Shown piece by piece: positions 16,329-21,241 of a stretch of 27,319 nt of DNA. The stretch comes from Candidatus Heimdallarchaeota archaeon. GTDB lineage: Archaea > Asgardarchaeota > Heimdallarchaeia > Heimdallarchaeales > Kariarchaeaceae. The stretch lies in the NCBI GenBank assembly GCA_015523565.1, contig WAKA01000015.1:1-27319 (forward strand), read 5' to 3'. Both the position numbers and the translations under genes were made by a program. Each line of letters starts with the position of its first letter. Position 1 is the stretch's first letter. The notes under the pieces were generated by a model. The model was not told the DNA's origin. It worked only from the letters and a program-made list of their open reading frames with translations, and ran no database searches.

Positions 16329-18233
16329 GTGAAACAAAACCGAAACGACATGTTTCTTGTTACAATTGTCTTATTGTTTTTAATTCAGTCCATTACCAAC
16401 CTGATCAAATCAATTTATTTGATAGACCTCCTGAATACACAACTTGATGCGAATGTGTTGGGACTCCTCTTTCTTTTTGGCTCAATTTCCCTTTTTATCC
16501 CTCTTGATGATGAAATGATGCAAAAAATTACACTGTCGACAGGGATTGCATTCCGTCTTGTCTACCCTTTTTTTGAGACAACATTAAGGCTTATCCTATC
16601 TGGCTTTGCTGTTTTCCTGTTCATGGCAGGAACCCCTCTGCTCATAAGAAACAAAAGAAACGTGCTTCCAAATGCAATGGCGATAACCATACTTCTTTCG
16701 ATTCTTTTCAGAAGTGCTGGAATGACTCTTGATCTCTCCGAAATCGGCTGGGGTCAGATAGTGGCTTGGATCCTCGCAATTTTCGCTTTATATGCAATCT
16801 TGACTGATTCTGCACTTTCAGAAACCTACAATGGTGAAAATTCAAAGAGAGATGATAATGATGAAAAAAATATATGGTCAATCTACTCTTTTCTCGGAAT
16901 TCTTACTCTTGTGTATTTTGCCTATGGAAGTCCTAGTGTACTTGCAAGATGGGTTGACAGCAATTATCTTTTGATAATGTCTCTATTGCTTTTGTCCATT
17001 TTATTTTTTGTCTTTTCAGAACATTTTATGCTTAGAATCTACTCGAACTCCAGAATCCTTTTGTTCTCCAATTTTCTATTCCTTTCATCTTTGGTGGGCA
17101 CAATCCTTCTCAACCAAGTCCATTTCATTGATGAGGTTGGTGCCGCTCCTATTTATGCGCCTGCAAGTAATCTGCTGAATAATGGTGTTCTTTATGTGAA
17201 TCTTTTGTTTTTTCATGTTCTGCTTTTCGATTTGAAGACAATTTCAATTGGATTCCCCTATTCAAGGCAGTCGTTGGCAAAACATTTTACTATGGCTACC
17301 TTTATTTTCGTTGTTTTAGTCTTTATGAACATCTTCAGCAATGTTTGGGGTTATGTCGATCCTGTAAGCGGATACTTTAGGGGATTATTCTGGCTTCCCT
17401 TTGCCATTGCCACCATCCTTGTTTTCCCTGCTACCTTAAGGTCACACCCCCTTCCTAATGGGATTTCCCTATCCACAATCATATTGGTTCTATTGCTATC
17501 CCTTTCCTCTGTTGCATTTACCTTCTCATTTAATCGACCATTGACAGATACTTCCCCTAATCTTACTGTAATGACATTCAATATTCAACAGGGGACTGAC
17601 GCGGGGGGAAATTTCGGCCTCAAAAAACAACTTGACGTCATTAAATCCTTGAACCCTGACATAATTGGTTTGCAAGAATCAGATATCGCAAAAATAAACA
17701 CTGGGAATGTCGATGCAGTTAGATACTTTGCAGAAAACCTTGGATATTATTCTTACTATGGTCCCAAAACCGTGATGCAGACTTATGGTGTCTCATTGCT
17801 CTCCAGATATCCTATTGTTGATGCAAAAACATTCTATACCTATGGGGACAAGGATGAAATCGGCACTCTCCAAGCAAAAGTGGATATCAACGGTCTCATT
17901 GTCAATGTATTTGTCAATCATCCCGCTGGAAGCCAAAATGCAAAATGGGATCACCTTAACGCTGTTCTAAATGCAAGTGACCCCGAAACCTTTACCATCC
18001 TCATGGGTGATTTCAATTGGGATGAAACATCAAGCTTCTATAATAGAACTGTAGTTGATTATTTGGATACATGGAGGACTCTCTATCCCAATGGCAAAAA
18101 GGATGGTTTAAACATGTCTCGTACAATTGACCATATTTTCGTCTCGAAAAAATTCACCATTCTCAATGCAGATTACATAATGCAATCATACTCTGATCAT
18201 CCTGCCTATGTTTGTGAAATTATCCCAGCGTGA
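16329..18233 (+). CDS. Multi-pass membrane protein with C-terminal EEP (endonuclease/exonuclease/phosphatase) domain; Cwh43/PGAP2IP-like
   Basis: About 400 aa of TM helices, then VMTFNI, IIGLQESD, SLLSRYPI, MGDFN, IDHIF and SDHPA (EEP motifs). The segment GNVDAVRYFAENLGYYSYYGP resembles the Cwh43 C-terminal domain. Confidence 0.85.
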   Translation: MKQNRNDMFLVTIVLLFLIQSITNLIKSIYLIDLLNTQLDANVLGLLFLFGSISLFIPLDDEMMQKITLSTGIAFRLVYPFFETTLRLILSGFAVFLFMAGTPLLIRNKRNVLPNAMAITILLSILFRSAGMTLDLSEIGWGQIVAWILAIFALYAILTDSALSETYNGENSKRDDNDEKNIWSIYSFLGILTLVYFAYGSPSVLARWVDSNYLLIMSLLLLSILFFVFSEHFMLRIYSNSRILLFSNFLFLSSLVGTILLNQVHFIDEVGAAPIYAPASNLLNNGVLYVNLLFFHVLLFDLKTISIGFPYSRQSLAKHFTMATFIFVVLVFMNIFSNVWGYVDPVSGYFRGLFWLPFAIATILVFPATLRSHPLPNGISLSTIILVLLLSLSSVAFTFSFNRPLTDTSPNLTVMTFNIQQGTDAGGNFGLKKQLDVIKSLNPDIIGLQESDIAKINTGNVDAVRYFAENLGYYSYYGPKTVMQTYGVSLLSRYPIVDAKTFYTYGDKDEIGTLQAKVDINGLIVNVFVNHPAGSQNAKWDHLNAVLNASDPETFTILMGDFNWDETSSFYNRTVVDYLDTWRTLYPNGKKDGLNMSRTIDHIFVSKKFTILNADYIMQSYSDHPAYVCEIIPA

Positions 18234-19555
18234 TTGATGTGACTGACAAAATCCCTATTCCCAAAGAACTGCTTGAATGGACTATGCATTTCCCCTCATA
18301 CTATCTCCCCCTAAAGGATTATCCGCAAAAAATCCTCAAACAAATGCTCGCAGTAAGGGATGTTAAAATGGATTTTTCAAAATTCATGGAAATCGTGCAT
18401 GACATGTTTCAAGAAAAGATTCTTAAACATGGGATCCGCCTTTCACAAGAAGGTCTGAAAGATACAGGCATTATGGAACATTATTTCATCGACAAAATTC
18501 CTTCGCTCTATCCTGGAAAATTCATTAAAAAAGGGGATAAATGGGTTTTGAGAAGCATTTCCGCAAACAGGGAAAAAAACCTTAAAATGCTTTTTAGATA
18601 CCCCTTGGAAAACAATCAAATCAATTTCAAAAAAACAGTCCATCTTTTAAACTTCCTCCAAATCTGTAATACCTACCTGCTTCTAATAATGGTGCCTGAT
18701 CCAAAAGAAATCACTCCCGAAGAACTTGTCGTTGTCTCATCCATTACTGTCTTGCTCTTTCATAAGTATAGGCACCTGTTCCAATTAGCGCAGGGCAATT
18801 TGGAATTAGCCTCAATCTATTCATCCTTGATAACTCCCATCCTATACTTAGTCGAGCTTACTGGCAATCAATATTTCATGAACCTTGCATTCACCTTTAT
18901 TCTGATATTGGAAAGCATTATGTATACACAGGTAACATTCCATCAAGTCAACGCATTTTTGAGTCTTATCCCTGAACTCCATAAAATGAACCTTGGTTCC
19001 TCTTCCCTTGATGCTGTCATTGAGCTTCTGAAAATCGAGGGACATTTACCTCTCCCGACAAATATCCAAAGAAATTTTCATTCTCCACATACCGTCAACT
19101 TTACACATATCCTCCTGTCTGAAAACAAATTATTGCTCTCCTATAGGTGGAATGATGCGATTTTTCTTGGAAAATTGAATGGAAAATACGCATACCTTTC
19201 TTCAGAAACATTTTCCTTCAGGAAACAAGGGTATGATGTCCAAATTATCGGTTTTGAAAAAGTAAAAATTATGGATGCCAATTTTTCCCAAGTCCGAACC
19301 AGCCTTTCATTTCGAAATATCGAGATCCTCCCATATCTTCTCCCCAATCTCCCCAAAAAAAGTCCCCTTTTTGTCAACCCATTTCATACCCTTGTCGTTA
19401 ACTCTAAAACACGATTGGATATTGAAGAAGCAAAATATGTTGTTCAATATGACAACGATTTCTCTTATGTCATCCATGTAAACAGCCTTTCGCAAATCCC
19501 CCAACTCCATGAAAAACTAACTGCATTGGATATTGAGGATATATTTCTTGTTTGA
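18230..19555 (+). CDS. Hypothetical protein (441 aa), translationally coupled to the upstream EEP membrane protein
   Basis: Long ORF whose GTG start overlaps the upstream TGA (GTGA). It has a helical hydrophobic middle and a beta-rich C-terminus. No family recognised. Confidence 0.7.
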   Translation: MIDVTDKIPIPKELLEWTMHFPSYYLPLKDYPQKILKQMLAVRDVKMDFSKFMEIVHDMFQEKILKHGIRLSQEGLKDTGIMEHYFIDKIPSLYPGKFIKKGDKWVLRSISANREKNLKMLFRYPLENNQINFKKTVHLLNFLQICNTYLLLIMVPDPKEITPEELVVVSSITVLLFHKYRHLFQLAQGNLELASIYSSLITPILYLVELTGNQYFMNLAFTFILILESIMYTQVTFHQVNAFLSLIPELHKMNLGSSSLDAVIELLKIEGHLPLPTNIQRNFHSPHTVNFTHILLSENKLLLSYRWNDAIFLGKLNGKYAYLSSETFSFRKQGYDVQIIGFEKVKIMDANFSQVRTSLSFRNIEILPYLLPNLPKKSPLFVNPFHTLVVNSKTRLDIEEAKYVVQYDNDFSYVIHVNSLSQIPQLHEKLTALDIEDIFLV

Positions 19556-19627
19556 CCTTTTTACCTTCTTATCACTTTTCCACAGGGTAGTGAAAAAACT
19601 TTTTAACCTTCGTTGGAAAAAACACTT

Positions 19628-20716
19628 ATGAAAACTCATGCTCTAGTAATCCCCCTTTTAATCATTTTGATGATACAACCCGTATCTGGTCTTGAATTTG
19701 GGGTTAAGGAAGGAGATTCAATGTTTTTCGATCGAACACAACTGACAAAACGCATTGATTTCAAAGGAAATACATCCGAAATATTGTCCGAACTGGAATT
19801 TGAACAAGATGGAAATATTTCTGTTACTATTGACAGAATAGGCAATCAACATGTCATTGCAAAATACAGTTATCAGGATGGAATTTTCCATGAGGAAGAC
19901 AAAAACGCCAGCTTTACAACTTATGCAGGCTATTTTGACAGCTCAGTCTATATTCTAATATTGGGTTTGGATGGCAATGCATGCCCGTTCTTGAATTTTG
20001 ATTTTCTGCTGTACCCTGTTTCTGACATAAAGAATGATTGCATACGTGCAAATGTCATGGCTGGTTTACGCAATTCAAAAAATGATTTTGGCATTGACGT
20101 GTCTGCATCAATTGATTCAAAGGATTTTGTATTTAAAGAGGCGATCTCCTCAGTCAAGGTTTCCCTTTCATTTCTCTATCAGGCTTATAACCCTGATATC
20201 AGCACAAATGTTCTGTCCATGTTGGACGATATTTTTGTCAATATCAAGACAAGTGTTTACGGTGCATTCAATGAGAATTATATGATTGGCTATTTCCGCA
20301 CCATAACTATGACTGTTGTTGGTTCAATCGACAAAATCATAACTTTACCTTGGTCACGAGAATATCCCCATCCCATAGATACCTTATATAATTCGACCGA
20401 GGCCATTCTGATTGACCCAACAACAGGATGGTTTGATGAGGTTTTCACCAAAAATCAATATTGGAGCGTTTTTAGAGATGAATTTGACGTAATTACTGCT
20501 CGTTTCAGAACTTTTGAGGATCACATCTTAAGGGAAGGAAAAAGCAGTTTGGTTTTTGACCTTTCAAAATTAAAACCTGAACCAATCACTATTGTTGTTT
20601 CTAGTAATGAAACTGTCACTGTTTCCCAACAATCCCTCTCTTACCAAATGCAAACAATTGTTTTCTCACTGGCTTTTGTCACTGTTTTCATTGCATTGTC
20701 CAAGAAGAGAAAATGA
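19628..20716 (+). CDS. Secreted/cell-surface protein with signal peptide and C-terminal membrane anchor
   Basis: MKTHALVIPLLIILMIQPVSG signal peptide followed by FGVKEGD, several NxS/T sequons, an S/T/V-rich linker, and terminal TIVFSLAFVTVFIALSKKRK (TM plus basic tail). Confidence 0.82.
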   Translation: MKTHALVIPLLIILMIQPVSGLEFGVKEGDSMFFDRTQLTKRIDFKGNTSEILSELEFEQDGNISVTIDRIGNQHVIAKYSYQDGIFHEEDKNASFTTYAGYFDSSVYILILGLDGNACPFLNFDFLLYPVSDIKNDCIRANVMAGLRNSKNDFGIDVSASIDSKDFVFKEAISSVKVSLSFLYQAYNPDISTNVLSMLDDIFVNIKTSVYGAFNENYMIGYFRTITMTVVGSIDKIITLPWSREYPHPIDTLYNSTEAILIDPTTGWFDEVFTKNQYWSVFRDEFDVITARFRTFEDHILREGKSSLVFDLSKLKPEPITIVVSSNETVTVSQQSLSYQMQTIVFSLAFVTVFIALSKKRK

Positions 20717-20719
20717 AAT

Positions 20720-21196
20720 CTAATTCTCCCTCAATTTTGCAATGAATTCCATCAATCTATCTTCATTGTCATTGATGTCAAAAAAATCAAATATCCCAAA
20801 AGACATGCACTTTCGCCGTATCTCCTCAAAATTTTCTTTTAACTCAATATCCATGCAGTCTACAGAAACTGCAATTTTTGCCTTTGGATATGTCCTCCTA
20901 ATCATCAATACCAAGTTTTCCAATTCTGAAACTGTTTTCATTGAATCAATTTGAAGAATGACTGCATTTGTGCCAATAAAGAATCTCTTTAGAATTGGTC
21001 TTGTCCTGTCAGAAAGATAGACATCCCAGATATTCACCAATACCTTTTCTCCTTTCATTTCCATTTCTTTTTGCCTATAATCAAACCCTGTCTCTGAAAG
21101 GTCTTCTCTCAAAAAATAGCTTGAAATGTGCCTTGAAAGCCTGTTTTTCGTAAAAGGTTCTGAAGAAATGTATGAGATCTTGACTTGTGATTTCAA
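20720..21196 (-). CDS. Degenerate Rab/Ras-like small GTPase-fold protein (probable pseudoGTPase)
   Basis: The order and spacing of KISYISSEPFTKN, TGFDYRQK, VNIWDV, RFFIGTNAVILQID and VSVDCMD mirror Rab G1-G4 and RabF regions, but the nucleotide-binding residues are substituted. Confidence 0.75.
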   Translation of the reverse strand: MKSQVKISYISSEPFTKNRLSRHISSYFLREDLSETGFDYRQKEMEMKGEKVLVNIWDVYLSDRTRPILKRFFIGTNAVILQIDSMKTVSELENLVLMIRRTYPKAKIAVSVDCMDIELKENFEEIRRKCMSFGIFDFFDINDNEDRLMEFIAKLREN

Positions 21197-21241
21197 TTTG
21201 CTTATATTACCTCGACAAAAAATATAAGCTTTCTAGAATTT

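Follow-up and report, generated by a model that had tools for sequence, protein, structure and literature searches.

A Rab-like small-GTPase homologue with degenerate nucleotide motifs, probably a stand-alone pseudoGTPase, in one genus of Heimdallarchaeota

Here we describe a Ras/Rab small-GTPase homologue from a Heimdallarchaeota genome whose nucleotide-binding motifs have degenerated throughout its family, and whose gene is probably a functional, stand-alone pseudoGTPase derived from a Rab-like protein and acting as a nucleotide-independent (class i-type) binding module. PseudoGTPases are an established and mostly eukaryotic class of proteins (PMC12490416, PMC5593906), and those of class i, in the scheme of Stiegler and Boggon (2020) as relayed in PMC12490416, neither bind nor hydrolyze nucleotide. 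The gene lies in a stretch of 27,319 nucleotides that was analyzed as a whole (contig WAKA01000015.1 of assembly GCA_015523565.1, hereafter the window). A first-pass annotation of this stretch had read the gene product as a retained G-domain fold serving as a nucleotide-independent scaffold. That reading is supported by the evidence given below, with the absence of nucleotide binding and the scaffold role predicted from motifs and conservation.

The genome that contains the window (G000) has a size of 3.57 Mb in 233 contigs, is about 90% complete, and carries about 30 Ras-superfamily genes. To our knowledge, the small GTPases of Asgard Archaea form large, eukaryote-like expansions whose partners and cellular roles are almost entirely unknown. 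The Asgard origin that the first-pass annotation had proposed for the contig is supported independently by these roughly 30 genes, and by the deposition of another genome of the same genus (G002) as Candidatus Heimdallarchaeota archaeon. It rests mainly on the whole genome and less on the pseudoGTPase gene.

Reading frame, homology and predicted fold

The gene, characterized by Pfam and PDB matches and an AF2 model, occupies positions 20720..21196 on the minus strand, with a TTG start at 21196 and a stop codon at 20720-20722. The open reading frame listing and translation give a protein of 158 amino acids without an internal stop, so that the intact, domain-sized frame claimed earlier is confirmed at its exact coordinates; the strings quoted from it (SSEPFTKN, ETGFDY, KVLVNIWDVYLSD, FFIGTNAVILQID and DCMD) are all present in the translation. 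In favor of the TTG start, the G002 orthologue begins with ATG and has an N-terminus as long as that of the window protein (orthologue alignment A1). Between the pseudoGTPase gene and the stop codon of the M20 peptidase gene upstream of it, the sequence reads as an intergenic, A/T-rich spacer of 45 nt (21197..21241, minus strand) that contains a GAGGT and two TATA-box-like elements, CTTATATTTTTT and TAATATAA. The TATA-like elements may constitute a putative promoter of the gene.

By profile and pairwise comparison, the window protein is a homologue of the Ras/Rab small GTPases. The Pfam Ras model (PF00071) matches it with 24.4 bits against a cut-off of 21.6, and matches three full-length orthologues with 22.5-27.9 bits, each above the cut-off by itself. 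The Roc model (PF08477) gives 26.8 bits at a cut-off of 27, and 26.5-34.9 bits across the sequences scored in that comparison. This search against Ras and Roc models was among the checks put forward by the first-pass annotation, and with Ras above its cut-off it places homology to small GTPases beyond chance. Among PDB sequences, phmmer found 207 matches to the window protein, with Rab35, Rab43, Rab30 and Rab12 first (E 1e-5 to 1e-4); the matches also include Ypt1 and Sec4, the top group lies at E 1e-5 to 1e-3, and the alignments span the alpha1 to beta4 region. Using hhalign, a profile of five family members was aligned to a profile of 18 canonical Rab-like paralogues of G000 with a probability of 98% and an E-value of 2.8e-13 over 127 columns. 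An ESM Atlas feature search with the pseudoGTPase returned generic 'G domain' or EutP-like clusters alone (0.85-0.91).

A small-GTPase fold is also predicted, as the structure-prediction check suggested in the first-pass annotation was meant to establish. The AlphaFold model made from the single sequence has a pLDDT of 59.7, yet most of the beta/alpha order is visible in it. The AF2 model made from alignment A2 reaches a pLDDT of 94.3 and a pTM of 0.90, and is drawn toward the canonical fold because the 41 rows of this alignment are mostly canonical GTPases. It contains a six-stranded beta sheet and five helices that can be superposed on solved small GTPases. Foldseek matches of this model include Rab1, Rab8 and Rab3 at TM 0.78-0.81, and an independent search of 48,161 PDB representatives with VIA-align gave Rab3C as the best match (Z 16.2, rmsd 2.7 A, 154 of 158 residues). 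In the latter search, structures of Rho, Ras and Ran come within about 1 Z of the Rabs, and the fold alone therefore cannot specify a Rab. The CENP-M, AAGAB and p190 pG domains are absent among the best 50 matches of either fold search, which has no bearing on relatedness.

Nucleotide motifs and the pattern of conservation

The claim that all G-boxes are altered stands for G1, G3, G4 and G5, which are degenerate, but needs qualifying in that every family member has D58 and D113, and three of four members keep T36 of switch I. The former G1 or P-loop (residues 12-19; 21140..21163, minus strand), located by alignment to canonical paralogues, is SSEPFTKN in place of GxxxxGK[ST]. The canonical paralogues have G-x4-G-K-T at this site and the relatives GTKTKINQ, GTKSRTEQ and SNIPDTGK, G1 being readable in the four full-length family members only. 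The P-loop Lys position is thus K/N/E/G across the family and the Ser/Thr position N/Q/Q/K; the one Lys that was said to be kept is present in the window protein as K17, but is N, E or G in its orthologues. Switch I, canonically TIGxDF, is ETGFDY in the window protein, and its Gly and Asp occur in all members.

The former G3 at the start of switch II (residues 56-61, IWDVYL; 21014..21031, minus strand) keeps D58 and has L60 for the Gly of DxxG. Where canonical proteins have WDxAGQ, the window protein has WDVYLS and its relatives WDV[YVL][LVC]S, with the Gly replaced by L, V or C and the position of the catalytic Gln occupied by an invariant Ser (S62). The former G4 (residues 110-116, VSVDCMD; 20849..20869, minus strand) was placed using MAFFT and hhalign, both of which set the invariant D113 opposite the Asp of NKxD. 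Canonical GNKxD corresponds to VSVD in the window protein and to [VA][SVA][VI]D in its relatives in the MAFFT alignment, while hhalign leaves the Asn and Lys in a gap. The earlier pairing of NKxD with DCMD was off in register by three residues, because D113, the first letter of that string, is what the profile and MAFFT alignments set opposite the Asp; the loss of the motif is unchanged. The former G5 (residues 139-143 by alignment; 20768..20782, minus strand) is DINDN for ETSAK, with ITDGD, ESEGN, QFSGA and VTEGD in the relatives, and the want of a clear SAK remarked on before extends from the NDN of the window protein to the whole family.

Wherever a member covers these motifs, it has lost GK[ST] and SAK, as well as both Gly and Gln from DxxGQ and both Asn and Lys from NKxD. 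By comparison, G1 is intact in all 29 of the other Ras-superfamily open reading frames of G000, and so are G3 to G5 where aligned, with one variant G4, leaving the window protein as the sole fully degenerate Ras-family frame detected in this genome with PF00071. It also has no prenylation tail, as the first-pass annotation had pointed out, a trait that does not set it apart because archaeal Rab-like proteins in general have no such C-terminal tail (PMC4915359; PMC10933270).

Conservation within the family follows a different pattern from that in canonical paralogues. In the 18 canonical proteins, the columns without any variation are precisely the G1, G3, G4 and G5 residues; the pseudoGTPase family, in which five sequences make per-site conservation coarse, has 26 invariant columns and none of them in the former G1 or G5. 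They include G49, W57, D58, V59, S62, T65, I68, R71, F72 and G75 in the beta3-switch II-alpha2 region, A78, V79, L81 and D84 in beta4, and I99, R100, T102, P104, K107, I108, A109 and D113 from the end of alpha3 into beta5. The former P-loop (0.27), the former G5 (0.28) and alpha5 (0.28) show the lowest mean pairwise identity, and beta4 (0.67), beta5 (0.57), alpha1 (0.56) and switch II/alpha2 (0.51) the highest. That the former P-loop and G5 are least conserved is as expected if nucleotide binding has been lost, and this inverted conservation is the strongest sequence-level argument for a nucleotide pocket that would now be unused.

The same pattern shows a constraint that now falls on the fold and on the interswitch and switch II, in partial overlap with the RabF positions, which are where Rabs contact their regulators and effectors (PMC4915359). 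The RabF1 to RabF5 consensus (IGVDF, KLQIW, RFRSIT, YYRGA and LVYDIT; the motifs of Pereira-Leal and Seabra, so far as PMC4915359 sets them out, together with general knowledge) corresponds to TGFDY, LVNIW, RTRPIL, FFIGT and LQID in the window protein.

Distribution, evolutionary rate and gene neighborhood

The family consists of five sequences, found in three of the four species of one Heimdallarchaeota genus and in two metagenome relatives. When 1.84 billion cluster representatives were searched exhaustively with HMMER, only four family relatives came out below an E-value of 1e-10; in a word-index similarity search, the pseudoGTPase matched itself alone. Whole-genome searches found orthologues in G001 and G002, both with 41% identity, and none in the remaining 43 of the 47 genomes of the order, across which scores against the family profile drop from 244-266 bits to 50 bits. 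The orthologues that the first-pass annotation had proposed to look for thus exist, in G001, in G002 and in the two metagenome relatives. No copy was found in G003, a genome of the same genus, either genome-wide or at the syntenic site, and the gene is therefore dispensable in the lineage of this well-assembled genome (93% complete, 10 contigs). The best matches outside the family, P0006-P0008, were rejected as special relatives, being tandem canonical Rabs with scores summed over repeats. Most likely the family originated, or at any rate persists, in a single genus-level clade of Heimdallarchaeota and nowhere else.

At this syntenic site of G003 (L111, contig C8, 4472-5817), downstream of the M20 peptidase gene, the place of the pseudoGTPase is taken by unrelated reading frames, which inspection of the translations by eye suggests to be uracil phosphoribosyltransferase-like and DnaQ-like exonuclease frames.

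In a quick maximum-likelihood tree, the pseudoGTPases form a monophyletic clade (SH-aLRT 100) on a stem of 2.76 substitutions per site. Constrained trees that unite the family with paralogues L015 and L016 (p-AU 0.75), or with L001, the most Rab-like paralogue of G000 (p-AU 0.70), are not rejected, and both have a likelihood above that of the quick free tree. L015 is the best paralogue match of the family profile (50 bits) and has an RKRFFxG segment in common with the family. 'Rab-like' is used here as a provisional label, the best-scoring one.

Evidence for selection comes from all ten pairs of family members, in which pN (0.21-0.43) is 2 to 4 times below pS (0.69-0.93). Nei-Gojobori ratios, where computable, are 0.07-0.32 and are to be read as upper bounds, since dS is saturated in most pairs and a proper estimate of dN/dS is out of reach for the same reason. 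Since pS is saturated and pN lies well under it in each pair, the purifying selection among orthologues that was put forward as a check is borne out. The open frames are intact in four independent lineages with saturated synonymous sites, and frames kept over such divergence together with pN below pS argue against a decaying pseudogene. At the same time, of the Ras-family genes compared between G000 and G001, this one evolves fastest, with 41% identity against 60-97% in 25 pairs of canonical GTPase orthologues. A burst of divergence, with purifying selection now keeping the pseudoGTPase, is the most likely history.

The gene neighborhood gives no consistent functional clue. Tail-to-tail with the pseudoGTPase gene lies U367 (19613..20716, plus strand), which encodes a protein of 367 amino acids that has a signal peptide at its N-terminus and is anchored in the membrane by its C-terminus. 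Its family, with counterparts at L032:1957-2994, L051:5454-6494 and L052:334-1416 (all minus strand), is fast-evolving (26-28% identity within the genus), has a C-terminal transmembrane helix with a KKRK tail, and is without a Pfam family. The convergent pair is present at four of the five loci (the window, L032 of G001, L051 and L052), and it has persisted through a local inversion, since the window carries the block of two genes in the opposite orientation to G001 and L051. The U367 family was not found in G002 or G003, and the G002 copy of the pseudoGTPase has a different gene context. Because the two genes are convergent, they are not co-transcribed. U367 was discarded as a partner, being almost wholly extracellular with about five cytosolic residues, convergent, and not found in G002.

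A second neighbor, of 441 amino acids (window 18230-19555, plus strand), belongs to a family of cytosolic proteins of 320-485 amino acids that occurs in all four species of the genus (also L032:10-1389, L103:1417-2874, L104:1423-2376 and L051:1961-3316) and has a conserved N-terminal half with the motif DK[IL]PS[VL][YF]PA.F. The 441-residue protein has no Pfam match and no ESM Atlas match. Only in G001 does a member of this family lie next to the pseudoGTPase and on the same strand as it, and the family was set aside as a source of partners given its presence in G003, which has no pseudoGTPase, and its location on another contig in G002. Complex predictions for the pseudoGTPase with this protein (A3, A1) scored 0.00 in two runs without controls, a result that counts neither way.

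L024 (G000:C219:15218-15433) and L027 (G000:C122:31177-31464) are G-domain proteins of 238 and 255 amino acids with intact G1, G3 and G4 and an insertion of about 60-80 amino acids between the P-loop and DxxG. They may belong to 'Rup3', a Heimdall-specific group for which an Asgard Arf preprint mentions expansions within the GTPase domain. Listed together are the loci G000:C122:30175-30681 (minus strand) and 31177-31464 (plus strand), and G001:C13:19716-20222 (minus strand) and 20713-20937 (plus strand). L012 (G000:C177:23285-23785) and L014 (G000:C106:1121-1621) are Rab-like GTPases with long extensions that are conserved in G001, one N-terminal, Glu/Lys-rich and about 140 amino acids long, the other C-terminal and about 120 amino acids long, coiled-coil-like or of low complexity.

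Predicted function and comparison with known pseudoGTPases

As a stand-alone pseudoGTPase, the protein would have its ancestor among the Rab-like small GTPases of the Asgard expansion and would have kept the G-domain fold. With its phosphate-, Mg- and guanine-binding residues lost, it most likely would bind no nucleotide (class i), and would most likely serve as a constitutive, switch-less protein-binding module that contacts its partner through the former switch face. Constraint has left the nucleotide pocket and now bears on the beta core, the interswitch and switch II/alpha2 (WDV..S..T..I..RF..G), as well as on the alpha3-beta5 junction (IR.T.P..KIA), partly overlapping the RabF contact positions.

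It is conceivable that the G domain still binds a nucleotide or another ligand at a non-canonical site, as would an atypical GTPase or a pseudoGTPase of the class ii/iii type. It would then accept GTP, GDP or some other phosphorylated ligand despite having no Walker A motif, and perhaps only with residues supplied by a partner. The invariance of D58 and D113, the switch I Thr in three of four members, and the one or two basic residues plus Thr or Ser in each former P-loop speak for this reading. We nevertheless consider it unlikely, given that a working phosphate site should be the most conserved part of the protein, which holds for the 18 canonical paralogues, whereas here the Lys and Ser/Thr positions of the P-loop are unconserved (K/N/E/G and N/Q/Q/K) in a segment of 0.27 identity, G4 has lost both Asn and Lys, and nothing of SAK is left. 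A further reading is that of an obligate subunit: the protein would be the dead half of a heterodimer with an active small GTPase, regulating or localizing the live half by the logic of Rag or SRP/SR instead of binding an unrelated client. The interswitch and switch II are the usual contact surfaces in Ras-superfamily complexes, their residues are retained here, and some 30 live paralogues are available in the genome, but no GTPase gene adjoins the pseudoGTPase at any of the five loci, and such pairing strikes us as distinctly improbable.

A functionless relic, a duplicated Rab-like gene drifting to loss, would account for the fastest rate among Ras-family genes between G000 and G001 (41% identity), for the narrow distribution, and for the gene not being found in G003. 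It is contradicted by full-length frames in four independent lineages at saturated synonymous divergence with pN 2-4 times below pS, and by 26 invariant columns, well-conserved core strands and full-length members that pass the Pfam Ras cut-off, so that we regard decay as very improbable. A nucleotide-independent pseudoGTPase under selection thus remains our preferred reading, and a more specific version of it, in itself doubtful, is that a Rab-like switch was turned into a permanent 'on' or 'off' mimic, a decoy that occupies a Rab regulator or effector through its RabF/switch face. The targets might, as speculatively, be sought among roadblock/longin-type GEFs or GAPs, or a TRAPP-like factor.

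If such a decoy exists, it would be a dominant one that occurs naturally in the small-GTPase network of a prokaryote, and would give a handle on the partners of Asgard Rabs. It would imply that pseudoGTPase-based regulation is older than eukaryotes, arising by an independent conversion in a lineage close to the archaeal ancestry of eukaryotes. The case of this pseudoGTPase is a modest one, its family being limited to one genus and its gene dispensable in a sister species. A switch-less G domain with a constitutive partner would be an experimentally convenient bait for the regulators and effectors of Asgard GTPases.

With the Asgard Rab-like GTPases described so far (Thor-Rab; Surkont and Pereira-Leal 2016, PMC4915359; Tran et al. 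2024, PMC10933270), the window family has in common its superfamily, fold, size and lack of a tail, and it keeps part of the RabF motifs (TGxD[FY] for IGVDF, xVQ[IV]W for KLQIW and [FY][FY]xG for YYRGA). Unlike them, it is degenerate in all nucleotide motifs (G1 and G5, G3 at its Gly and Gln, G4 at its Asn and Lys), evolves much faster, and is confined to one genus-level clade. Another close parallel is offered by the class i pseudoGTPases of eukaryotes, including the psGD of AAGAB/Irc6, CENP-M, pG1 and pG2 of p190RhoGAP and the G domain of the dynein light intermediate chain, which likewise keep the G-domain fold and have lost the G motifs. They serve as nucleotide-independent protein-binding modules, the use that is predicted for the window protein, which differs from them in being a stand-alone, single-domain, archaeal protein. 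In the literature searched, no paper joins 'pseudoGTPase' and 'Asgard'. No specific sequence relationship to the eukaryotic pseudoGTPases is detectable, which points to an independent origin from an Asgard Rab-like paralogue. The cycle of paralogue birth, degeneration and re-use that lies behind the CENP-M, AAGAB and p190RhoGAP domains would then also run in the archaeal relatives of eukaryotes.
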